64,000 bases of DNA from Rhodospirillum sp. (GTDB lineage: Bacteria; Pseudomonadota; Alphaproteobacteria; Rhodospirillales; Rhodospirillaceae): positions 100,170-164,169 of the forward strand of contig JAIOYK010000002.1 of NCBI GenBank assembly GCA_021741145.1. The letters run 5' to 3'. The translations under genes were made by a program, and so were the position numbers. The notes under the pieces were generated by a model. The model was not told the DNA's origin. It did no database searches and worked only from the letters and a program-made list of their open reading frames with translations. Shown one piece after another: positions 1-48,754 of the stretch; the first letter of the stretch is position 1; each line of letters begins with the position of its first letter.

Positions 1-164
1 AGACCGCCGTAGCGCTTGGCCACCTTGTCGGCGTCGACGGAGACATCAATGGCCACGACCTTGGCGCCACGCTCCAGCAGGGTCTTGACGAATTGGAAGC
101 CCAGTTGGCCCACGCCGCCGGTGACCACCACCACGCGGTCTTTCACGTCGAACAGATCGGACAT
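1..164 (-). CDS. short-chain dehydrogenase/reductase (SDR), N-terminal fragment; gene runs off the left edge
   Basis: Manual reverse translation from the ATG at 164-162 gives MSDLFDVKDRVVVVTGGVGQLGFQFVKTLLERGAKVVAIDVSVDADKVAKRYGG. This is a TGGxGxxG Rossmann start. The fragment is too short to appear in the ORF track. Confidence 0.6.
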   Translation of the reverse strand, partial: MSDLFDVKDRVVVVTGGVGQLGFQFVKTLLERGAKVVAIDVSVDADKVAKRYGG

Positions 165-236
165 CTTGTTTCCTAACACCCGTTGGCGGGTCGGGATCCG
201 ACGGGCGTCGGCCCTGACCTCCGTTTCTTCATTTCC

Positions 237-306: not shown

Positions 307-1458
<1,152 letters not shown>

Positions 1459-1513: not shown

Positions 1514-2464
1514 CTATACCTTCATGCGGGCCGCTGGAATGCGGTTGTCGGCTTCCAGCAATTGGTCCACCAACTTGCCCCAGCTGAAGCTCTCCGCGGC
1601 GACCTTGCCCGCCTCGGCGATACGGGCAAGCACGTTCGGATCCGTCGGCAGGTCCTCGAGCTGGTTGATGTCCAGCACCGTCTCCATGTGCTTGTACACT
1701 GGGGGCGAGTTTTCATCGAGGTTGGTGATAACCACCGCGCCGGCGCTCAAGGCCGTGTGCAGGCTGGTGTTGTTGGCCCGCACGCCCTTGGGGAAGAAGG
1801 CCGCGAAAAAGGTCGTGGTCTGGAGATAGTGGTTCACCGCGGTGTCGGAGATGAACCCCAGGAAGTGGACGGGGCCGTCGTAATTGGAGCGGATCCCCTT
1901 CACCGCGCCGGTGAAGGCGCTTTCGATGGCCGTGCCCTCGTGCAGGGCGGTCGACAGGTACAGGGAGTGGCTTTTTCCCGTCTTGTTCAGCAGGGCTTCC
2001 AGTGCGCGGTAGTTGTCGCCGCGCACCTTGTGGGCCATGCCGAAGGTGAAGACGGAGATATCCGTCGGCGTAAAATCGTCCACGTCGAACAGGACGCCCG
2101 GGCACCAGCTTTCCACCACGTCCGGGCAAATGGGTTTCAGGCGGTTGGCCAACTCCACATTGCCCACGTAGACGATGTCGGATTCCGCGATCAACTTGTG
2201 CTCGATGGGGGTGTCATCATAGGCGTGCAGGAACAGACGCAGGGACTGGGTGGCGGGACGGTCGTCCAGGAAGCGCTCCAGGTCCCGGGCATGGGCCTTG
2301 GTGAACTCGCTGATCTTGATCGACAGCAAGGGGCGGCTCATGCGCGCCACCGATGGGTCGAACAGGGACAGGTGGGGAACGGCCAGTTCCTCGGCGAGCG
2401 CCTGATTGAACTTGGCGATGCCGCAGGACAGCGGATTCAAGTGATAGCCGACGATGCAATCCAT
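1514..2464 (-). CDS. putative divergent GT-B-fold glycosyltransferase-like protein
   Basis: 316-aa soluble ORF in the glycan operon. The C-terminal FFAAFFPKGVRANNTSLHTALSAGAVVITN resembles the GT4-type donor-binding region but lacks the usual EX7E glutamates. I could not assign a family by eye. Confidence 0.45.
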   Translation of the reverse strand: MDCIVGYHLNPLSCGIAKFNQALAEELAVPHLSLFDPSVARMSRPLLSIKISEFTKAHARDLERFLDDRPATQSLRLFLHAYDDTPIEHKLIAESDIVYVGNVELANRLKPICPDVVESWCPGVLFDVDDFTPTDISVFTFGMAHKVRGDNYRALEALLNKTGKSHSLYLSTALHEGTAIESAFTGAVKGIRSNYDGPVHFLGFISDTAVNHYLQTTTFFAAFFPKGVRANNTSLHTALSAGAVVITNLDENSPPVYKHMETVLDINQLEDLPTDPNVLARIAEAGKVAAESFSWGKLVDQLLEADNRIPAARMKV

Positions 2465-2534: not shown

Positions 2535-3713
2535 TTACAGGACGGGCTTGGCCTTTTCGTAGACCAGCACGCGACCGACGTTGCGCCAATCCATCTTGGC
2601 TTCCAGATCCGGACGGCGCTTGAAGCCCTGTAGGTTGAACATCAGGCGCAGCATATCCTTGTTCATGCAGTTGATATGCGTCGGATCCACATGGAATTCC
2701 GTGGTCACGTCGAACAGGGACCGAGGCTCCGGATGGAAGCGGGTGGTGACGTAGATGTATTTGTTGGAAATTCGGCAGAGGTTCTCCACGGCCTTTTGAA
2801 CCTGCAGCACGGTCAGGTGCTCGAACACCTCGCGGCAGATGATCAGGTCGTAGGCGTTCGCGGGCAGGTCGATGTCGATGATGGAGCCGATCTTGATCTT
2901 GTCGGCCACTTCCTTGGGAGCGATGTCCTTCGACGCCTGGGAGAAATCGACGCCATCGGCATCCACGCCCACTTCCTGGAGCAAGTACATCAAGGCACCA
3001 GGGCCGCAGCCCATGTCGATGGCCTTGGTGGGCTTGAAGGTGTCCGCGATCAGCCGTGGGTTTTTTCCTTCGATGGGGCGTCGTGCCTCGACAGTGTAGC
3101 TGTTGTTTTCGGCTCTCCAGGTATCGTTGAAGTACTCTTCCGAGTAATCGTCCGCGTTGGTTTGTTCCTGAGTCAACAGGAACGTCTCGAAATCCTCGAG
3201 GTCGCCGGGCATTCCGGAGTTGCGGAGGAAGGATTTCAGCAGGTCCGAGGAGCTGTCCAGGACCGTATCCAAATAGACGATCTCAATCCCGAACTCCTGG
3301 CATGCGGCGACCTCGCCCGCGGGAAGGCCTCGGCTTTCCCAATCCTTGCCCTTCACGTAATATTTAGGCTTGAGGTGGCGCAGGACATCCTCGGTCGTTT
3401 TTCCGTTGATGTGCGTATAGGTCACGGGCTTTAGGGCGTCGATGACCTGGGCGCGCTTTTCCTGCGCCAGGAACGGGGGGTGCTTGCTTTTTACATAACC
3501 ATCGCCCGTGATGCTCACCAGCAACGGAACACCGAGTTTCGCGGCCTCCGTGAAATAAGCCGTATGGCCGTGATGCAAGGGGTCGAATCCGCCATCAACC
3601 ATGGCGACGCCTCCCTGATACCCAGGTAGGTCCTCGAAATTCAAAAGCATGCGACGCATCCGAAACTGTGGTATGAGCCGGTCCTTATAACGGAATGTCT
3701 TGGGTCCCGCCAC
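2535..3713 (-). CDS. bifunctional-looking cytidylyl/adenylyltransferase (HxGH family) fused to a class I SAM-dependent methyltransferase
   Basis: The N-terminal VAMVDGGFDPLHHGHTAYF carries an HxGH nucleotidyltransferase signature of the TagD/RfaE-domain-II type. The C-terminal half has AIDMGCGPGALMYLL (SAM motif I) and DLIICREVFEHL. Alternative starts lie at 3659 and 3650 (MRRM). Confidence 0.75.
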   Translation of the reverse strand: MAGPKTFRYKDRLIPQFRMRRMLLNFEDLPGYQGGVAMVDGGFDPLHHGHTAYFTEAAKLGVPLLVSITGDGYVKSKHPPFLAQEKRAQVIDALKPVTYTHINGKTTEDVLRHLKPKYYVKGKDWESRGLPAGEVAACQEFGIEIVYLDTVLDSSSDLLKSFLRNSGMPGDLEDFETFLLTQEQTNADDYSEEYFNDTWRAENNSYTVEARRPIEGKNPRLIADTFKPTKAIDMGCGPGALMYLLQEVGVDADGVDFSQASKDIAPKEVADKIKIGSIIDIDLPANAYDLIICREVFEHLTVLQVQKAVENLCRISNKYIYVTTRFHPEPRSLFDVTTEFHVDPTHINCMNKDMLRLMFNLQGFKRRPDLEAKMDWRNVGRVLVYEKAKPVL

Positions 3714-3745: not shown

Positions 3746-5092
3746 ATGGCGGAATCCGATCCTCTCGATCGGAAACCTTTGTATTTGGTGGGTGGCGTGA
3801 TGGGGACGATGGGCCGGATGGAACGCGCGATCAGAACGTCATTGGTCCGTCTGGCCTTGACCCGCGCGGCTCCCGACGAGGCCCTGGCCGTCGCGCGGCG
3901 TGGTCTGGATGCCGCCCTGAGCAAGAAGGTCCGACCGCGGCGTCTGTGGGAGCACCTGACCGAAACCCTCCGCCAGGGTCTGCTTGCCTCGCCCCCCGAG
4001 CGTCGGGCCGCGCTGCTGGCGGGCGCGGTGGAGGAGGCCGTACCCGGCTTCGAAGGGGACCGGGAGAGCCTTTACAGTCTTTACCGGCGGCTCGTTGACT
4101 TGGGCACGGCTCCCACGTCCCTGGAGCCCGCGCCCACCCAGTTCGAGGTGAGGGCTGGGGCGGGGGACACCCTGGTCGTTGGTCCTTGGACCATGGAAGT
4201 CGGTTTTGAATTGCTATACTGGATCCCGTTTCTGCGCGCCAAGCTGGCGGAATCTGGTCCGGGCACCGATCGGATCACCGCCGTTGGGCGGGGCATCGCC
4301 CCCAGCTGGTACGAAGGGATCGCCGACAATACCGTCGACATCCTTGATCATTGGACTCCAGAAACCTTTCGGGACCGTGTGGAAGCCCAGGTCCGAAACG
4401 GCGGTCTGCGGAAGCCCTTCGGCATGGGAGACTTGGAACGGGATCTTTTGACCGATATTCTGGGATCCCCACCGGAGGATGGGACCTATGAGCTGATCGC
4501 CCCACCCACCCTATTCGCCCGTTTTCGGAATGTCTGGGGAAGCCGTATCGCCGGTCCCGGGGTTATCGAACACCTTCGGTTCGCGTCGGTAACCCCCCCC
4601 CCGCCGCCAGTTGGTCTGCCATCGGAGCCCTTTTTGACGGCGAAACTCTACTTTTCCGAAGCGTTCCCGGACACGGAGCGGAATCGGGCTTTCCTGCGGG
4701 ATGTCCTGGATGGCGCGCGGAGCGAAATGCCTGTTGTGCTCCTCGGTCTGCCCGACCGGTTGGACGATCACCAGTCCTTCCGCCTTGATGCTCCCGGTCT
4801 CATCGATGGGACTGTTTTCTATGGCAGCAAGGGAAATCTGGAGGTTCAAACCGCCATTGTGGGGGCGTCCCGAGGGTTGATCTCCGTCTACGGCGGTTTC
4901 ACCTATCTGGGGGGGCTATTGGGAAAGCCGGGACTGGCATTGGTGGATGATGCCTCCGAAGTCAATCCGGTCCATTTTGCCGTGGAGCATGCCATGCTTT
5001 CGGCCCTTGGGGCCCCCGGCCGGATCCTGCTTCCACCCGGCACCGGGGGTGGGGGCGTGGCCGGGGCCTTCGCGGTTGGGGTCAAAGAGTGA
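3746..5092 (+). CDS. uncharacterised protein; last ~300 aa paralogous to the C-terminal half of ORF 52713-55283
   Basis: 448-aa ORF. Shared blocks with the other copy are VVGPWTMEVGFELLYWIPFLR / IIGPWMSEVGFEILYWIPLVR, SWYEGI / RWYEGI, FSEAFPDTERNRAFLRDVL / YSRETFADTNENRDFVRGVL and NLEVQTAIVGASRGLISVYGGFTYLGGLLGKPGLAL / NLDVQTRIIAKSRGFIGTYGGLSYIAPLVGRPAFAF. Confidence 0.6.
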   Translation: MAESDPLDRKPLYLVGGVMGTMGRMERAIRTSLVRLALTRAAPDEALAVARRGLDAALSKKVRPRRLWEHLTETLRQGLLASPPERRAALLAGAVEEAVPGFEGDRESLYSLYRRLVDLGTAPTSLEPAPTQFEVRAGAGDTLVVGPWTMEVGFELLYWIPFLRAKLAESGPGTDRITAVGRGIAPSWYEGIADNTVDILDHWTPETFRDRVEAQVRNGGLRKPFGMGDLERDLLTDILGSPPEDGTYELIAPPTLFARFRNVWGSRIAGPGVIEHLRFASVTPPPPPVGLPSEPFLTAKLYFSEAFPDTERNRAFLRDVLDGARSEMPVVLLGLPDRLDDHQSFRLDAPGLIDGTVFYGSKGNLEVQTAIVGASRGLISVYGGFTYLGGLLGKPGLALVDDASEVNPVHFAVEHAMLSALGAPGRILLPPGTGGGGVAGAFAVGVKE

Positions 5093-5292
5093 CGAAGAGG
5101 AAGCGCGGGGTCCCAAGGAACGGTGGGAGGGGTTGAACGGCTTCCCCTTTCGTGGAAATCCCAAAAGACGTCGTGTTTGATATGTGGGACAACCGCTCCG
5201 CTGGCGAGTCCATGGTCCCTGCTGGTGGGCGTGACGGTAATAATGGATCTTCTTCGTTCTGGACGAAGAAAGCAACTAGGGTAGGATACGTG

Positions 5293-6435
5293 ATGCTGAC
5301 CTCCGCTCGGATTCTTTCTCTTATCGAAGAGAAAAGAAGTTCCCAACAGTACAGGAATTATCTGACTGTCCGTGACGCGGTTCTGAAGATGCGGGAGGTA
5401 CCGCTGGAGCGCATTCCGGAAACCGCGCTCCCCAGCGCCTATTGGACAGAAGAACTGTCACGTTTTCTGTATATGTTCGACGCGTCGCCCCTTGTCATCG
5501 ATCAATTGCGTCACCACACCTATCATATTACGGGTATCCAGGTTTATGGCTATCGGACGGGCGCCAGTTCCGCGCCCCTATTCGCCGAGAAACTGGAAGC
5601 CTTGAAGCGATTGGATGAGACGGGTTTGTTCGTTCCCGAGGCGGAGAACCTGGGGGGCTTTGGCCATTTAATCGATGGCCAACTCGTCAATATTGATACG
5701 CTGAAATATTATGAATCGATGGTCGCGATGGGGCGTGGTGGCGCGCTGGAGGCTTTTGGTGGTGAGATGCGCCGGACGGTCATGGAGATCGGTTCGGGAT
5801 GGGGCGGTCTGGCCCATGTGTTCAAGAGGCTGTTCCCCAACACGACTTACATTTGCGTCGATCTGGCCGAATTGTTCCTGTTTTCAGCCACCTATCTGAT
5901 GTCCGTGTTCCCCGAGGCGAAGGTTGCCTTCCTGGACGCGGACGGCAATGGGGTGGAAGGGGCTTGGTCGGATTACGACTTCATCTTCGTGCCCAATACA
6001 CTAGCGCATGAGATCAAGGGGGAGTCCCTGGACCTGTGCATGAACACGGTGTCCTTCCAGGAGATGACCACGGCGCAAGTGACGGAGTATGTCGCCCTTG
6101 CCGACCGACTGGGTGCCCCCCTTCTGTATAGTCTCAACAGGAAGCGGTCGGTCTATTCGACCGAACTGACCGATGTGCACGAAATCATCGGCGAACGCTA
6201 CGATACCACCGAAATTCCAATGCTGCCCGTTCCCTATACGAAGATGATGGATAGTCTTCGTAAGAAGGAAAAGGTGAAAGAAAAGAAGGAAAAGGGTGAT
6301 AAGAAAGAAAAGGTAAAGTTTGAAGTTGATAAGGGCGGTCTCTCTCTGGAAAAATCCGCTATCTCCGCCGCTAAAGCCGAAAAGGAAAGCATGAACTATA
6401 AGCACGTTGTCGGTCGACGCAAAATTGTAAGCTGA
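5293..6435 (+). CDS. class I SAM-dependent methyltransferase (sugar O-methyltransferase-like) with Lys/Glu-rich C-terminal tail
   Basis: VMEIGSGWGGLAHVF is a glycine-rich SAM motif I, followed by ICVDLAE and a later NTVSFQEM block. The start is moved to the ATG at 5293, which has AGGA 6 nt upstream. The gene is visibly lower in G+C than its flanks. Confidence 0.7.
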   Translation: MLTSARILSLIEEKRSSQQYRNYLTVRDAVLKMREVPLERIPETALPSAYWTEELSRFLYMFDASPLVIDQLRHHTYHITGIQVYGYRTGASSAPLFAEKLEALKRLDETGLFVPEAENLGGFGHLIDGQLVNIDTLKYYESMVAMGRGGALEAFGGEMRRTVMEIGSGWGGLAHVFKRLFPNTTYICVDLAELFLFSATYLMSVFPEAKVAFLDADGNGVEGAWSDYDFIFVPNTLAHEIKGESLDLCMNTVSFQEMTTAQVTEYVALADRLGAPLLYSLNRKRSVYSTELTDVHEIIGERYDTTEIPMLPVPYTKMMDSLRKKEKVKEKKEKGDKKEKVKFEVDKGGLSLEKSAISAAKAEKESMNYKHVVGRRKIVS

Positions 6436-7030
6436 GAATGGATTGGGTCAAGAATAGAGGAGACTCTGGTCGGATCGAATCCATTCGCGATGAATTTGCC
6501 GCCGTTCGGGGCGAGCGGCTTTCCGAGTACGAGAGATGCTCGGCTTCGCCGCTCGACGGCCGAGGGAGCTGAACTTGGATGGCAAGATGGGCGCGGCCCG
6601 TGGGCGAGCGTTCAGGGGATCGCTTGGCCTCGGCACGATGGCTCCCGGGACAGGACTTGGGAAACCAAGGTGGGACACCGATTGACCCGTGCAGTCCGAA
6701 GAAGGACGCAAGAACCTGCCCCCGCCAAGGCAGGAACACCCCTGCTCGGACGTCATGGAGGCAAGGCGTATGGGCGAGAAGGCGCTTAGCACGGTCTTCC
6801 GGAGAGCCTAAATCCCCGGGATTTCCATGGTGAATAGCCTGGACCTGGACTCTGGTCCCGGATCCGGGACCCGAACGGAGTGTGCTGGGCGGTCGCGCGC
6901 GGGCGTGAATGGTGAACCCGGATGCCGGGTTATACCAAGGTGCATGGGTCGAAACCCAAGCCCCTTGTATCACGTTCAAACGCCATACGGGCTTAACGCG
7001 CCATGGGGCGCGGGGCCGGTCAGCCGCTTC

Positions 7031-7063
7031 CAGCCCGCGATGAGTCACGCTCATCGCGGGCTG
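7031..7063. terminator. GC-rich hairpin directly after the stop of the KdsC-like gene
   Basis: CAGCCCGCGATGAG-n5-CTCATCGCGGGCTG forms a 14-bp stem and ends 4 nt from the TAA at 7067-7069. No clear U-tract follows on either strand, so it is terminator-like only. Confidence 0.4.
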
Positions 7064-7066
7064 GTA

Positions 7067-7606
7067 TTAGCCGGATTGGGGTTCCGTCTCCCTCACCCGC
7101 GCGAGACTATCACAAACCTCGCGAACGGCGCCCCGTCCCCCAAGCCATTGGGTCACGTAGCGAGCATATTCCATCACGTCGGGATGACCATCCCGGACGA
7201 CAATGGGCAGGCCTACGGCGCGCAGGCAATCCAAGTCATTAATGTCATTGCCCACGTAGGCCACGGCTTCCAGGCCGATGTTTCGTTCGGCGCAGAGGGT
7301 CTTCAGGGCGGGCAACTTGTTCTCGACCCCCTGGGTCGCTTGAATCTTGAGCTTGGCGGCCCGGGCGGCCACCACCGGATTGACCTCGGTGGAAAGGATC
7401 ATGCATTCGATGCCGGTCTTGGTGACGCGGCGCAGCCCATATCCATCCAGGCGCGAGCAGGTGACCGCTTCGCGGCCATCCTCGAACACATGGACGGTAT
7501 TGGCGGTAAAGACACCATCGAAATCGAAGACCAAAAGCCGCAGCCCTCGGATCCGGGCAATCAGGTCCGGATCCGAGGGTGGCGTGACGGGAGTCAGAAC
7601 CGTCAT
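7067..7606 (-). CDS. HAD-superfamily KdsC-type phosphatase (candidate KDN-9-P / Neu5Ac-9-P phosphatase)
   Basis: LLVFDFDGVFT (DxDG motif I), ILSTE (motif II) and VGNDINDLDCL (motif IV) follow the KdsC layout. The start is set to the ATG at 7606 (MTVL), 8 nt downstream of the synthase stop. Confidence 0.8.
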   Translation of the reverse strand: MTVLTPVTPPSDPDLIARIRGLRLLVFDFDGVFTANTVHVFEDGREAVTCSRLDGYGLRRVTKTGIECMILSTEVNPVVAARAAKLKIQATQGVENKLPALKTLCAERNIGLEAVAYVGNDINDLDCLRAVGLPIVVRDGHPDVMEYARYVTQWLGGRGAVREVCDSLARVRETEPQSG

Positions 7607-7613
7607 GGACCGA

Positions 7614-8693
7614 TCAGGACTTCGCCAGATCGACCGGGGCGGTCTCGCCAACGAGTTCGAAGGTCAGGTCTCCGTCCTTCTTCACCGCCGCATTGATGGT
7701 CTTGCCCAGGAAGTCCTCGAAGTAGTAGGGGGGCACGCCATCATTGGGCACTTTGAAGGTGATATCCTCGGCGGTCAGGACATGACCCGCCGGCAGGTCC
7801 CGGTTGGCCACCAGCTTCTTGGCCATCTTGAACAGCGGCTTCTTCTCACTTTCGAAGCACCGCTTGACGCCATCGCCGATGGCGATGCGGGTGCGCTCCA
7901 AGTCACGGACGACCTTCTTCAGGCCAGGGGGTTCAAGAGAGAAGGCCTGGTCCGTCCCCTTCCAGGCGCGGTTCAGGGTGAAGTGCTTTTCGAAAACCCG
8001 CGCGCCGAACATGTAGCCGACGATGGGCATGGCCACGCCGCTGTCGTGACTGGAGAAACCGATCACGATGTCCGGGAAGGCGTTGAAATAGGTCTCGATG
8101 ACCTTCAGGTTCAACTCCTCGTGCTCGGGCGGATAGCCGGAGGTGCACTGCATGATGCAGAGGTTTTGGTTGATCGGCATGATGGCGTCATAAGCACGCT
8201 GGGCATCGGCCATGGTGCCGCCACCGGTGGACACGATCATTGGCTTGCCGAAGCTGGCCACATATTTCAACAGCGGCGTGTTGGTCAGGTCGCCCGAGGC
8301 GATCTTGTAGCCGGAGATGTCGATGTCTTCCAGGAAGTCCGCGGATGGGTGATCGAAGGCGGTGGAGAAAAACAGGACGCCCAGTTCCTCGGCGTACTTC
8401 TTCAGCTCCAGATACTCGTCCCGTCCGAATTCCAGGAACTCGCGGTGCGCGCCGTAGGTGGGGGCGTAGGCGTTCTCGGAGTTGTAAGGGCTATTGTACA
8501 TTTCCTCGGTGAAGAGAGCGCGGTTGTCGCGCTTCTGCAGCTTCACCGCATCGGCGCCCACTTCGGCCGCGGCCTTGAACAAGGCCTTGCACTTTTCCAG
8601 ATCGCCCTGGTGGTTGTGGCCGATTTCGGCGATCACGTAACTGGGGCTGTCCTGGGTGACAACCTTATTGCCAATCTTGAACTCACGCGCCAT
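7614..8693 (-). CDS. neuB: nonulosonic acid synthase of the NeuB family, animal-NANS-like (probable 9-phosphate-forming)
   Basis: IAEIGHNHQGDLEKCK, TYGAHREFLEFGRDEYLELKKYAEELGVLFF, CIMQCTSGYPPEHEELNLKVI, IGFSSHDSG and FEKHFTLNRAWKGTDQAFSLEP. A C-terminal SAF-like domain is present. The blocks resemble human NANS as I recall it more than E. coli NeuB. Confidence 0.9.
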   Translation of the reverse strand: MAREFKIGNKVVTQDSPSYVIAEIGHNHQGDLEKCKALFKAAAEVGADAVKLQKRDNRALFTEEMYNSPYNSENAYAPTYGAHREFLEFGRDEYLELKKYAEELGVLFFSTAFDHPSADFLEDIDISGYKIASGDLTNTPLLKYVASFGKPMIVSTGGGTMADAQRAYDAIMPINQNLCIMQCTSGYPPEHEELNLKVIETYFNAFPDIVIGFSSHDSGVAMPIVGYMFGARVFEKHFTLNRAWKGTDQAFSLEPPGLKKVVRDLERTRIAIGDGVKRCFESEKKPLFKMAKKLVANRDLPAGHVLTAEDITFKVPNDGVPPYYFEDFLGKTINAAVKKDGDLTFELVGETAPVDLAKS

Positions 8694-43024: not shown

Positions 43025-43248
43025 ACCAAAGGGGCAATGGCGCGTTTCCTTGGAAGCCCCCTTCGAGGGGGTGGCGGTTCCCATTGGCGTAACCCTTTCG
43101 TAACATGGAGAATCGGTCATGTTTGCCAGGAAACCTCGCTTGCGGTTCCTCGGTTGGCGTGGCATTAACGGCAATGCTGGTCGCTTGGTCGAACCCACTC
43201 CCAGGGGGTCCCGATGCGTCCCCAGCTCGAACTGAGAGAGGTCGTATT

Positions 43249-44127
43249 ATGTCCCGACGCGTGCGCAAGGCCGTCTTCCCCGTCGCGGGAATGGGTACTC
43301 GCTTCCTGCCCGCCACCAAGACCATGCCCAAGGAAATGCTGCCCGTCGTTGATAAGCCCCTGATTCAATACGCCGTCGAAGAAGCCGCGGCCGCGGGGAT
43401 CGATAATTTCATCTTCGTGACCGGTCGGGGCAAACATGTCCTGATGAGCCACTTCGATCACATGCCCGAGCTTGAGGCCATGCTCGAGGAGAAGGGCAAA
43501 ACCGATATCCTCGAAAATCTGCTGGGTTCGATGCCGGCACCGGGCAAGGTCTTCGCCACCCGCCAACAACAGCCCCTTGGTTTGGGGCACGCGGTGTGGT
43601 GCGCCCGAGCTTTCGTTGGCGACGAACCTTTCGCCGTTCTTCTGCCAGACGATCTCGTTTTATCCGAGAAACCTTGCATCGGACAGTTGATCGAGGCCTA
43701 TGAGGCCACCGGTGGCAATGTGGTCGCCGTGGAAGACGTCCCCCGGGGTCGCACCAACAAATACGGTATCCTCGATGTGGTCGAGGACGATGGGCGATTG
43801 GCCCGCGCCAAGGGTCTGGTGGAAAAGCCTGAACCCGACGCGGCGCCCTCGACCATGGCGATCATTGGCCGCTATGTCCTGGATCCGGGTATTTTCGATC
43901 TTCTGGAAAATCTGCCCCGGGGAGCGGGCGGAGAGATTCAGTTGACCGATGCCATGAACGCTCAGATCGCGGATGTTCCCTTCCACGGCCTGCGCTACGA
44001 GGGGACCCGCTACGACTGCGGCGATAAGGTCGGGTTCCAGCAGGCAAACATCGCCTATGCCCTGGCCCGACCGGACATGCGCGAGGCCATGAAACAGGTT
44101 CTGCGGGGGTTCGCCAAGGACCTGTAG
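43249..44127 (+). CDS. galU: UTP--glucose-1-phosphate uridylyltransferase
   Basis: KAVFPVAGMGTRFLPATKTMPKEMLPVVDKPLIQY, GLGHAV, LLPDD, VEKP and GRYVL are canonical GalU blocks. GAGAGAGG precedes the ATG at 43249. Confidence 0.92.
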   Translation: MSRRVRKAVFPVAGMGTRFLPATKTMPKEMLPVVDKPLIQYAVEEAAAAGIDNFIFVTGRGKHVLMSHFDHMPELEAMLEEKGKTDILENLLGSMPAPGKVFATRQQQPLGLGHAVWCARAFVGDEPFAVLLPDDLVLSEKPCIGQLIEAYEATGGNVVAVEDVPRGRTNKYGILDVVEDDGRLARAKGLVEKPEPDAAPSTMAIIGRYVLDPGIFDLLENLPRGAGGEIQLTDAMNAQIADVPFHGLRYEGTRYDCGDKVGFQQANIAYALARPDMREAMKQVLRGFAKDL

Positions 44128-44170
44128 GAGGACAACCGGAGTGGCGCCCTGGGACGCAGCTCTTTTTCCA

Positions 44171-44289
44171 TCGAAGGCGTCTCCGCGCCTTGCTTCTTAA
44201 TCGAAGGCGTCTCCGCGCCTTGCTTTTAATCGAAGGCGCCCCTGTGCCTTCCGTTTTAATCGAAGGGGCGGCCGCGCCTTCTTCCCCAG
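44171..44289. repeat. four tandem ~30-bp units, each a small GC hairpin plus T-rich tail
   Basis: Units start at 44171, 44201, 44230 and 44260: TCGAAGGCGTCTCCGCGCCTTGCTTCTTAA, TCGAAGGCGTCTCCGCGCCTTGCTTTTAA, TCGAAGGCGCCCCTGTGCCTTCCGTTTTAA, TCGAAGGGGCGGCCGCGCCTTCTTCCCCAG. Each has an AAGGCG...CGCCTT stem. There are no unique spacers between units. Confidence 0.9.
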
Positions 44290-44329
44290 ACGCGCTCCAA
44301 TGGGGCGCTCGCCATTGCGGAGTACGACA

Positions 44330-47368
<3,039 letters not shown>

Positions 47369-47369
<1 letters not shown>

Positions 47370-48754
47370 TGAACATGCACAGCTTCCACCCCACCATCCT
47401 GCGCGCCTATGACATCCGCGGCATTGTTGGCGAAACCCTGTTCGAGGCCGACGCCGAGGCGATCGGCGCCGCCTATGGGACCCTTGTCAGGCGGGGCGGT
47501 GGCTCGGTGGTCTGCGTGGGCTACGACGGACGGGTCAGCTCTCCGGTCCTGGAAGCCGCGGTGGTGGCGGGTTTGACGTCCACCGGTGTGACCGTTCGCC
47601 GGGTGGGTCGGGGGCCCACGCCCTTGCTCTATTTTTCCGTCAAGCATACGGGCGCCGACGCGGGCATCATGATCACCGGATCCCATAATCCACCCACCCA
47701 TAACGGCTTCAAGATGTTGCTGAAGGCCCGTCCCTTCTATGGAGACGACATCACCCAAATCGGTGTCTTGGCCGCCAAGGGAGACTATGACGTCGGGGAG
47801 GGGGCCGTGGAGGACCTGGACCTGATGGACACCTATGTCGAACGGCTGGTCCAGGACTTCACCGGCGGACCCGAGGCTGACATTTCCGTGGTCTGGGACG
47901 CGGGCAATGGCGCCGCGGGCGAGGCCATGGTCAAGCTGGTGGAGAAGCTGCCGGGCAAGCACCGTTTGCTGTTCCAAGACATCGACGGATCCTTCCCCAA
48001 TCACCATCCGGATCCCACGGAGCCGGAGAACCTTGAGGACCTGATCGCCGCGGTGGCCGAGGAAAGGGCCAATCTTGGCATCGCTTTCGACGGGGACGGC
48101 GACCGGATCGGGATCATCGACGGAGCGGGCAAGGTTCTCTGGGGCGACCAGATCCTGATGCTGTTGGCCCGGGAAGTTCTGGCGGAGCGCCCGGGAGCGA
48201 CCATCATCGCCGACGTGAAGGCCAGCCAAGCCCTGTTCGACGAAATCGCCCGTCTGGGCGGCCAGCCCTTGATGTGGAAGACCGGCCATTCCCTGGTGAA
48301 GGTGAAAATGGCCGAGACCGGGTCTCCGCTCGCCGGGGAAATGAGTGGTCATATTTTCATGGCCGATACCTATTACGGCTATGACGACGCCCTCTATGCC
48401 GCGGTGCGCATGCTCAACGTGGTTCTCGGCCTGAAGGACCAGGATCTGGCCGCGGCCCATGCCGCCCTGCCCAAGGCCGTCAATACCCCGGAGTTGCGGT
48501 TTGACTGCCCCGACGAGCGGAAGTTTTCCGTCATGGCCGAGGTGGCCGAGCGGTTGAAGGCGGAAGGGGCCACGTTCTCGGATGTGGACGGGGTTCGGGT
48601 GAATACGGACAAGGGGTGGTGGCTGCTGCGGGCCTCCAATACCCAGGCGGTCCTGGTGGCCCGGTGCGAGGCTCCCACGGAAGCGGACCTCGAGTGTCTG
48701 AAAGTCACCCTGTCCAGCCATTTGGAGCGGGCGGGTTTGGCCCTTCCGGCGTGA
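47369..48754 (+). CDS. phosphomannomutase/phosphoglucomutase (AlgC/ManB type)
   Basis: [21 protein letters not shown] (active-site Ser), [12 protein letters not shown] and GEMSGH. The ATG shares one base with the pgm TGA (TGATG). Confidence 0.88.

Follow-up and report, generated by a model that had tools for sequence, protein, structure and literature searches.

What does a bacterium make with an animal-type sialic acid synthase and a phosphatase encoded directly behind it? The question is raised by a 64,000-nucleotide stretch of a Rhodospirillum sp. genome (GenBank assembly GCA_021741145.1, contig JAIOYK010000002.1, positions 100,170 to 164,169; hereafter the window). Here a 359-aa NeuB-family synthase (P0001; 7614-8693, minus strand) that resembles the animal enzyme NANS is followed by a 179-aa phosphatase of the KdsC/YrbI type, a C0 member of the haloacid dehalogenase (HAD) superfamily (7067-7606, minus strand). 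[quoted passage not shown] The neighbourhood of the synthase points elsewhere. Because the synthase is linked across phyla to a short-chain dehydrogenase/reductase (SDR), an aldehyde dehydrogenase (ALDH) and a remodelled transketolase (TK), what finally emerges is probably not plain KDN but an ulosonic acid that has been tailored, and it may be a di-acid with a shortened chain; a compound resembling KDN 9-phosphate (KDN-9-P) would at best be an intermediate. We hold, with somewhat better than even confidence, that a conserved cassette for ulosonic-acid synthesis, split in two in this genome, has the synthase and the phosphatase as its two opening enzymes, and a phosphate-type route is likely.

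To place the synthase, we compared it with family models and with its relatives. It matches Pfam NeuB (PF03102) over profile positions 3-241 of 241 (246.1 bits, cut-off 22.1) and carries a C-terminal SAF/AFP-like domain (Pfam SAF, 35.4 bits, cut-off 21), as expected of a member of the NeuB family, and its metal and active-site motifs AEIGHNH, SSH and EKH are all present. Its scores stay below the cut-offs of two NCBIfam equivalogs, NeuB_NnaB (TIGR03569, 277.7 bits against 399.65) and PseI (TIGR03586, 223.6 bits against 340.25). In BLASTP it aligns to mammalian NANS (P0294) with 268 bits and 38% identity over 341 residues with 3 gaps, and to the bona fide NeuB of its own genome, on contig C70, with 161 bits, 34% identity and 26 gaps; mammalian NANS and the C70 NeuB align with 153 bits, 35% identity and 27 gaps. 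The C70 enzyme passes the NeuB_NnaB cut-off (432.8 bits) and adjoins NeuC and NeuD. The long blocks that the preliminary description had seen as shared with human NANS are borne out by the alignment (TYG.H...LEF, QCTS.YP and E(K/R)H.TL...WKG(T/S)D...SLEP). Moreover, the blocks K(F/L)QK, TYGxH..LEF, QCTSxYP and KG(S/T)D..SLEP are kept in NANS and in 67 representatives of the clade to which the window synthase belongs, whereas canonical NeuB/LegI-type sequences have xGPD instead and lack TYGxH. On scores, common blocks and common indels, then, the enzyme is much closer to NANS than to canonical NeuB, and is NANS-like rather than a canonical NeuB, PseI or LegI, as had been proposed.

Being NANS-like does not make the enzyme a NANS. 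In the maximum-likelihood (ML) tree the clade of the window synthase has 100/100 support, the animal NANS sequences, including an arachnid NANS, form a separate clade (96/98), and from the same node a third lineage departs as a grade running to canonical NeuB/LegI. A quick tree with midpoint rooting places NANS as the sister of the window clade (SH-aLRT, an approximate likelihood-ratio test, 90), a sisterhood that requires a root within canonical NeuB. Because the two clades are separately supported in the ML trees, we read the window synthase as a member of a bacterial clade of its own that lies outside the NANS clade. The NANS sequences had been retrieved with a 76-residue bait, which proved a 100% match to a human NANS isoform, and the tree representatives were the best matches to the window synthase, so that the set is biased towards its own clade; the metagenomic representatives that bear names are the arachnid NANS and Paenibacillus NeuB/LegI.

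The phosphatase follows closely. The synthase ends with a TGA stop at 7616-7614, and after 7 nt the phosphatase begins with ATG at 7606, so that the KdsC-type enzyme seen in the preliminary description stands and only its spacing, given there as 8 nt, changes. It belongs to the KdsC/YrbI subfamily (TIGR01670, 108.9 bits, cut-off 106.95), and falls below the cut-offs both of the equivalog for KdsC, the phosphatase of 3-deoxy-D-manno-octulosonic acid 8-phosphate (Kdo-8-P) (NF007019, 131.9 bits against 208), and of the Bacteroides thetaiotaomicron KDN-9-P phosphatase model (NF058599, 87.5 bits against 180). Its HAD motifs are intact (DxDGV as DFDGV, GNDxND as GNDIND). The best solved relative is 3mmz (4e-36, 128 bits), and further matches in the Protein Data Bank (PDB) include E. 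coli KdsC (103 bits) and BT1713 (3e81, 66 bits). Directly 3' of the phosphatase stop lies a GC-rich hairpin of 15 bp without a U tail (7030-7064, minus strand); the fold of 7010-7075 on this strand reaches -39 kcal/mol (z = -4.6 against shuffles). A consensus terminator scan did not call the hairpin because it has no T run, and it probably marks the 3' end of a two-gene transcript or stabilises it. With this hairpin and its own leader of 474 bp 5' of the synthase gene, the pair looks like a separate two-gene unit. The hairpin sits at the edge of a 630-bp convergent gap (6436-7066). An open reading frame (ORF) at 6371-7054 on the minus strand was considered as a gene and is treated as non-coding because it has no family match and a low GC content at third codon positions (GC3).

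The rest of the cassette lies at and beyond the left edge of the window. The preliminary description had seen no neuC or neuA and took the CMP-activating enzyme to be missing or non-canonical. Neither gene is present in the window, but a NeuA-type gene (CTP_transf_3) lies 2.2 kb past its left edge, at 97191-97961 of the window's contig (C41), and had seemed missing because the window edge cuts it off. The search of the genome for a KdsB or NeuA homologue, which had been suggested as a check, returned five CTP_transf_3 matches, one of them on this contig. Among solved structures the protein is closest to CMP-sialic acid synthetases rather than to KdsB. For the genes around it we use the coordinates of locus L010 (C41:84170-102169; the window coordinate is the L010 coordinate minus 16000). 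The SDR, ALDH, NeuA-type and transketolase-like genes occupy L010:11037-16179 on the minus strand with gaps of 21-127 nt, within a ten-gene string on that strand (a fusion gene, a 316-aa protein, GDP-mannose 4,6-dehydratase (Gmd), SDR, ALDH, NeuA-type, transketolase-like, Capsule_synth-like, GT4 glycosyltransferase and FkbM methyltransferase) in which the gaps range from -59 to 127 nt. The SDR gene (L010:15349-16179, or window -651 to 179) runs off the left edge, leaving its first 59 codons in the window (1-179, minus strand); its product matches Pfam adh_short_C2 (148.8 bits) with the YxxxK motif present, and the catalytic motifs of both SDR and ALDH are intact. Among NCBIfam models the SDR matches PRK09186 first, and the next matches include gluconate 5-dehydrogenase and D-mannonate oxidoreductase, all far below their cut-offs. 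All five cassette genes (synthase, SDR, ALDH, NeuA-type and TK) are thus found on one contig within 13 kb, and the cassette proteins are 42-76% identical to their partners in related loci. Two plus-strand genes (3746-5092 and 5152-6435) part the synthase-phosphatase pair from the rest. In gene content the pathway is complete in this genome, with an activating enzyme and a likely transferase present.

To investigate how general this arrangement is, we scanned one genome per species and sought the partners by tblastn with the proteins of this genome. The scan gave 80 loci, with synthase orthologues 58-71% identical to the window enzyme, in about eight phyla, spanning Alpha-, Beta- and Gammaproteobacteria, Desulfobacterota, Chloroflexota, Acidobacteriota, Cyanobacteria, Vampirovibrionia and Bdellovibrionota; 45 of them have full 6-kb flanks. 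An ALDH partner was found in 62 of the 80 loci (40 of the 45 with full flanks), a NeuA-type cytidylyltransferase in 59 (38 of 45), an SDR in 57 (34 of 45) and a transketolase-like gene in 55 (34 of 45), and the phosphatase in 25 (15 of 45). The SDR orthologues (42-66% identity) come after the synthase in those 34 full-flank loci, and the usual order is synthase-(phosphatase)-SDR-ALDH-NeuA-TK in tight same-strand operons. When present, the phosphatase (46-59% identity) is encoded on the same strand as the synthase. Of the 15 full-flank loci that have it, 13 place it directly beside the synthase (gaps of 19-277 nt), and the remaining two have a KpsC-like gene or about 2 kb in between. Such adjacent phosphatases occur in Chloroflexota, Acidobacteria and Desulfobacterota. 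The association persists at 46-50% synthase identity, including a version with a split TK and phage contigs. The linkage of synthase, SDR, ALDH, NeuA and TK therefore crosses phyla, and the three-enzyme KDN pathway, in which no further tailoring enzymes would be linked, does not describe these loci, since SDR, ALDH and the transketolase-like gene are linked to the synthase in most of them and in the window genome. Within the order of the window organism, a close synthase orthologue (74% identity) was found in 1 of 120 other sampled genomes. The cassette is thus sporadic, as expected for mobile surface-polysaccharide genes.

Several occurrences stand apart from this pattern. On two phage-like metagenomic contigs a synthase of the clade lies between the large terminase and portal genes (L094:2242-7185 and L095:2051-5849). 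One phage-like contig also carries SDR, short transketolase-like, CTP_transf_3 and FkbM methyltransferase genes, and L095 has just Cupin_2, CTP_transf_3 and FkbM genes beside the synthase. The phage-contig synthase had no counterpart among deposited phage genomes. Streptomyces sp. NBC_01237 has consecutive genes for synthase, SDR and TK on a linear replicon of 1.6 Mb (NZ_CP108509.1; L106:9001-12783), with 49% identity for the synthase and 48% for the transketolase-like protein; matches to ALDH, the NeuA-type enzyme and the phosphatase were absent within 9 kb. The phosphatase homologues of two Chloroflexota genomes that have no adjacent one were considered as cassette parts and rejected, as they are CMP-transferase-phosphatase fusions of another NeuB locus. 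These fusions (L100:742-1974 and L101:1474-2706) are 410 aa long, join CTP_transf_3 to a KdsC-like HAD phosphatase and adjoin a short NeuB without a SAF domain; they mark a second phosphate-type ulosonic-acid locus apart from the cassette. A thiamine-auxotroph strain of Sinorhizobium reportedly makes a KDN polysaccharide; the Sinorhizobium plasmid collection, the plasmids being all that was covered, holds just canonical-type (34%) synthase homologues.

The transketolase-like enzyme can be aligned over its whole length with human transketolase (TKT; PDB 4KXU/3MOS) at 206 bits, and across 45 orthologues His37, His77, His110, Asp155, Asn185, His258 and Glu366 (human TKT numbering) are invariant, that is, the positions that bind thiamine diphosphate (ThDP) and metal or take part in catalysis. 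By contrast, Arg318 (V/S/A/I), Ser345 (D), His416 (Y/L/F) and Arg474 (I/S/P/T), the sugar-phosphate ligands of the human enzyme, are never canonical in these orthologues, and Asp424, the reader of an acceptor or donor hydroxyl, is replaced by Pro. The protein therefore looks like an active ketol-transferase that uses ThDP and whose substrate channel has been remodelled in a conserved way. The longest ORF of its gene (L010:11037-13370) would give it a 140-aa N-terminal extension, which we reject: it overlaps the NeuA-type gene by 349 nt. The true start is probably a GTG at L010:12947, which has a GAAGGAG Shine-Dalgarno sequence and yields a 636-aa protein of a length like that of the orthologues.

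From these components we propose the following pathway. The synthase would condense phosphoenolpyruvate (PEP) with a terminally phosphorylated aldose to give the phosphate of a 2-keto-3-deoxy acid, mannose 6-phosphate (Man-6-P) to KDN-9-P being the simplest guess, and the KdsC-type phosphatase would then strip the terminal phosphate from this product; each of these two assignments we think reasonably probable. That the synthase would use a 6-phosphorylated hexose is supported indirectly, by the phosphatase beside it. With greater confidence we expect the sugar to be tailored by the SDR, the TK-like enzyme and the ALDH instead of being used as plain KDN. How it is tailored is a more tentative matter, and the trimming chemistry as a whole seems to us possible rather than probable. 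In this scheme, the most economical one and one that finds a task for each enzyme, the SDR would oxidise the penultimate hydroxyl, at C8, to leave a CH2OH-CO- ketol terminus; the TK-like enzyme, its sugar-phosphate site lost, would remove the two terminal carbons C8-C9; and the ALDH would convert the resulting C7 aldehyde into a second carboxylate, giving a di-acid of the 3-deoxy-heptulosaric type. Transketolases need a (3S,4R) donor configuration, and on reasoning, 8-keto-KDN would have it, which fits the scheme. By the same kind of reasoning the Asp424 contact would be unneeded because the C6 oxygen of 8-keto-KDN is tied in the pyranose ring. The NeuA-type enzyme would make the CMP-sugar, and a KpsC-like transferase would add it to the polysaccharide exported by the window's Wzx/Wzy, with O-methylation likely. 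That the TK-like enzyme has exchanged its sugar-phosphate site for a new pocket and in fact cuts the side chain of a KDN-type acid, which the ALDH caps, so that an undescribed CMP-activated 3-deoxy-heptulosaric sugar would serve the surface polysaccharides of bacteria in many phyla and be carried by some phages, is the boldest reading and a doubtful one.

The transferase named here is a 592-aa protein (P0427) encoded left of the window with a weak Capsule_synth match in Pfam. Homologues of 51-58% identity occur in many phyla, several of them on contigs with synthase homologues. Its AlphaFold2 (AF2) model, with a mean predicted local distance difference test (pLDDT) score of 92, is closest to the KpsC beta-Kdo transferases (Z 14.4-15.0, root-mean-square deviation (rmsd) 3.7-4.0 A), in an alignment that spans about 280 residues at about 12-13% identity. 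WbbB follows with Z 12, and generic enzymes of the GT-B glycosyltransferase fold reach Z <= 12.7 with rmsd values of 7 to 11 A, so that the KpsC matches stand about 2 Z above these. The HP motif is invariant. A likeness to KpsC would fit a CMP-ulosonic acid donor, and on this model the protein likely transfers an ulosonic sugar.

A number of points weigh against the pathway as proposed. Every chemical step in it is inferred. Two thirds of the full-flank loci have no phosphatase within 6 kb, and in one cassette-bearing alphaproteobacterial genome no phosphatase homologue was found with this query, which leaves the phosphate route unproven for the clade. In addition, there are cassette variants without an SDR (Chloroflexota) or without an ALDH (SAR202, Streptomyces and phage contigs), for which a simple SDR-TK-ALDH order needs unlinked enzymes. 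In the window genome itself the pair appears to be a separate transcription unit, and its coupling to the SDR-ALDH-NeuA-TK block is drawn from other genomes. The role given to the four replaced TK residues is an assumption drawn from the human TKT structure, and all TKT residues were mapped through one phmmer alignment. The ML trees leave the strict sisterhood of NANS and the window clade unresolved, and their sequence set lacks the KDN-9-P synthases BT1714 and that of Prymnesium. In the phylogeny that the preliminary description had proposed as a check, run here without BT1714, the synthase stands apart from canonical NeuB/LegI and does not fall within the NANS clade.

Could the pair simply make KDN? 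A synthase and phosphatase of this kind, with a CMP-transferase, would produce plain KDN or CMP-KDN from Man-6-P as in B. thetaiotaomicron, with SDR, ALDH and TK acting elsewhere. The NANS-like synthase with its adjacent KdsC-type phosphatase, the NeuA-type enzyme nearby and the transcription unit that the pair forms on its own all agree with this, as does the occurrence of KDN in bacterial glycans, including that of the alphaproteobacterium S. fredii (PMC9000132), and some relatives, such as phage contig L095, do without TK and SDR altogether. However, the closest orthologues in the various phyla belong to operons that also encode SDR, ALDH and TK, the sole NeuA-type gene near the pair sits inside the SDR-ALDH-TK block, and the conserved remodelling of the TK substrate site argues for a dedicated pathway step, so that we judge plain KDN unlikely. 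The mannose-based supply that the preliminary description saw in Gmd and phosphomannomutase (PMM) adds little: both genes are in the window, but they are weak evidence because the PGM/PMM-family gene (47369-48754) is 39 kb from the synthase, and Gmd consumes GDP-mannose and supplies no Man-6-P. The NANS-like character of the synthase would also suit the animal route, in which N-acetylmannosamine 6-phosphate (ManNAc-6-P) is converted into N-acetylneuraminic acid (Neu5Ac) 9-phosphate and then into Neu5Ac. Since neither the locus nor the related cassettes contain GNE, NeuC, ManNAc kinase or aminosugar genes, and the genome's NeuC sits elsewhere with the canonical NeuB, this is the least probable of all the explanations we considered.

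The extra enzymes might instead act before the synthase. In such a model the SDR and TK would cut a ketol-ended keto sugar acid, e.g. a 5-keto-aldonate or keto-uronate, to a four-carbon aldehyde-acid that is condensed with PEP; the NANS-like anion site would bind a carboxylate, and the phosphatase would act on a precursor, e.g. 6-phosphogluconate. This would account for a TK whose phosphate site is gone and whose ketol-handling histidines are kept and for the many loci without a phosphatase, and it is in line with the sugar-acid dehydrogenases found among the SDR's next-best matches after PRK09186. Yet those matches are all far below cut-offs, the phosphatase, when present, is nearly always directly beside the synthase, and nothing in the model requires the ALDH, which is the partner found most constantly (in 40 of 45 loci); we regard it as improbable, a little more so than plain KDN. 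As for the phosphatase on its own, it is the sole TIGR01670-family (KdsC-family) gene in a genome that is 99% complete, and KdsC models give it higher scores than the KDN-9-P phosphatase model does, as would be expected if it were the housekeeping Kdo-8-P phosphatase of lipopolysaccharide synthesis that lies beside the synthase by chance. Its 131.9 bits against a KdsC cut-off of 208, its distance of 7 nt from the synthase and the orthologues that adjoin the synthase in Chloroflexota, Acidobacteria and Desulfobacterota speak for a tie to the synthase and make this explanation very unlikely. Moreover, the control alphaproteobacterium Caulobacter has no TIGR01670 match, so Alphaproteobacteria can do without KdsC.

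The other genes near the pair include further companions of the cassette. Next to the SDR lies Gmd (307-1386, minus strand; Pfam GDP_Man_Dehyd, 444 bits), a homologue of which (about 50% identity) is present in just 3 of the 80 related loci; it probably serves a 6-deoxyhexose of the polysaccharide and not the ulosonic acid. A 316-aa protein without a named family follows (1514-2464, minus strand; GC3 0.87). It had no Pfam, NCBIfam or PDB sequence match, and in seven loci of other phyla a homologue of 44-51% identity immediately precedes the synthase, so that the protein represents an unnamed family tied to the cassette. A fusion protein (2535-3713, minus strand) joins an HxGH-type cytidylyl/adenylyltransferase-like domain to a class I methyltransferase (Pfam CTP_transf_like and Methyltransf_23/11). 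It is an accessory partner of the cassette; in L019, L031 and L037 its homologues (55-57% identity) lie upstream of the synthase at a distance of 1 kb. The first of the two plus-strand genes encodes a 448-aa protein (3746-5092) with no Pfam or NCBIfam match and weak homologues (28-32%) beside the cassette in L031, L037 and L070. The second encodes a putative sugar O-methyltransferase of the NanM type (5152-6435; TIGR04371, 107.4 bits, cut-off 44), a homologue of which (50% identity) stands next to the cassette in L031; its GC3 is below that of its neighbours and fails a filter of >= 0.68. These four accessory genes travel with the cassette in Acidobacteria and Desulfobacterota. Further away, a sugar-nucleotide supply block at 43105-48754 comprises a nucleotidyltransferase, a UDP-glucose/GDP-mannose dehydrogenase, a eukaryote-type PGM1-like phosphoglucomutase and the PGM/PMM gene.

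Beyond this contig the genome is rich in related genes, with four NeuB paralogues in all beside the five CTP_transf_3 matches. Contig C70 (616-8622; L104) carries the bona fide NeuC-NeuB-NeuD set and also a second, divergent NeuB with CTP_transf_3 and an aminotransferase. On contig C72 (L105) a NeuB lies near a PseC/LegC-like aminotransferase and a fusion of CTP_transf_3 with a 2-hydroxyacid dehydrogenase. The organism may thus have up to four NeuB-family or ulosonic-acid pathways.

The way in which phages, hosts and neighbouring cells recognise a bacterial surface is shaped by its sialic-acid-like sugars. A cassette that couples an animal-type synthase to a repurposed transketolase in about eight phyla and on phage contigs points to a class of acidic surface sugar that may have been missed in compositional analyses, or mislabelled as KDN or 'sialic acid'. 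If the trimming scheme is true, it would be a new reaction type for the transketolase family. It would also be the first biosynthetic route to a sugar resembling 3-deoxy-D-lyxo-heptulosaric acid (Dha) and a model for plant heptulosaric acids such as Dha, whose biosynthetic route and nucleotide form are still unknown (PMC12168206). By reasoning only, a product derived from KDN would differ from plant Dha in not being of D-lyxo configuration. KDN itself is already known from bacteria, namely K. ozaenae, S. fredii, B. thetaiotaomicron, Streptomyces and Serratia (PMC9000132; PMC6200933), and the literature we searched held no paper describing the cassette.

The locus can be compared with several known systems. 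With animal NANS the synthase has in common its 359 aa, the NeuB plus SAF/AFP architecture, 38% identity with 3 gaps and the conserved blocks; unlike NANS it is bacterial, belongs to a separate 100/100 clade and is linked in operons to SDR, ALDH and TK. NANP, the phosphatase that partners the animal enzyme, is of a different HAD type. The KDN pathway of B. thetaiotaomicron consists of the KDN-9-P synthase BT1714, the KDN-9-P phosphatase BT1713 and a CMP-KDN synthetase (PMC6200933). It resembles the present locus in its NeuB-family synthase, KdsC-like C0 HAD phosphatase, NeuA-type cytidylyltransferase and lack of NeuC, and differs in that the window phosphatase fails the BT1713 model and that three further conserved enzymes, SDR, ALDH and TK, are found here. 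The canonical NeuC-NeuB-NeuA, Leg and Pse pathways share the synthase superfamily and CMP activation, but the window genome's own NeuB has an xGPD block and a 25-residue insert that are missing from the window synthase, and the locus lacks NeuC, PseB/C and LegB/C genes, such a set being on C70. The predicted transferase agrees in fold and in its invariant HP motif with the retaining beta-Kdo transferases KpsC/KpsS and WbbB (GT107/GT99), from which its low identity and its form as a single long protein set it apart. Finally, the TK-like enzyme keeps the ThDP, metal and catalytic His/Glu residues of transketolase (EC 2.2.1.1), whereas in 45 of 45 orthologues the four canonical sugar-phosphate ligands and the hydroxyl-reading Asp are replaced, and it is encoded in a CMP-ulosonic acid operon.

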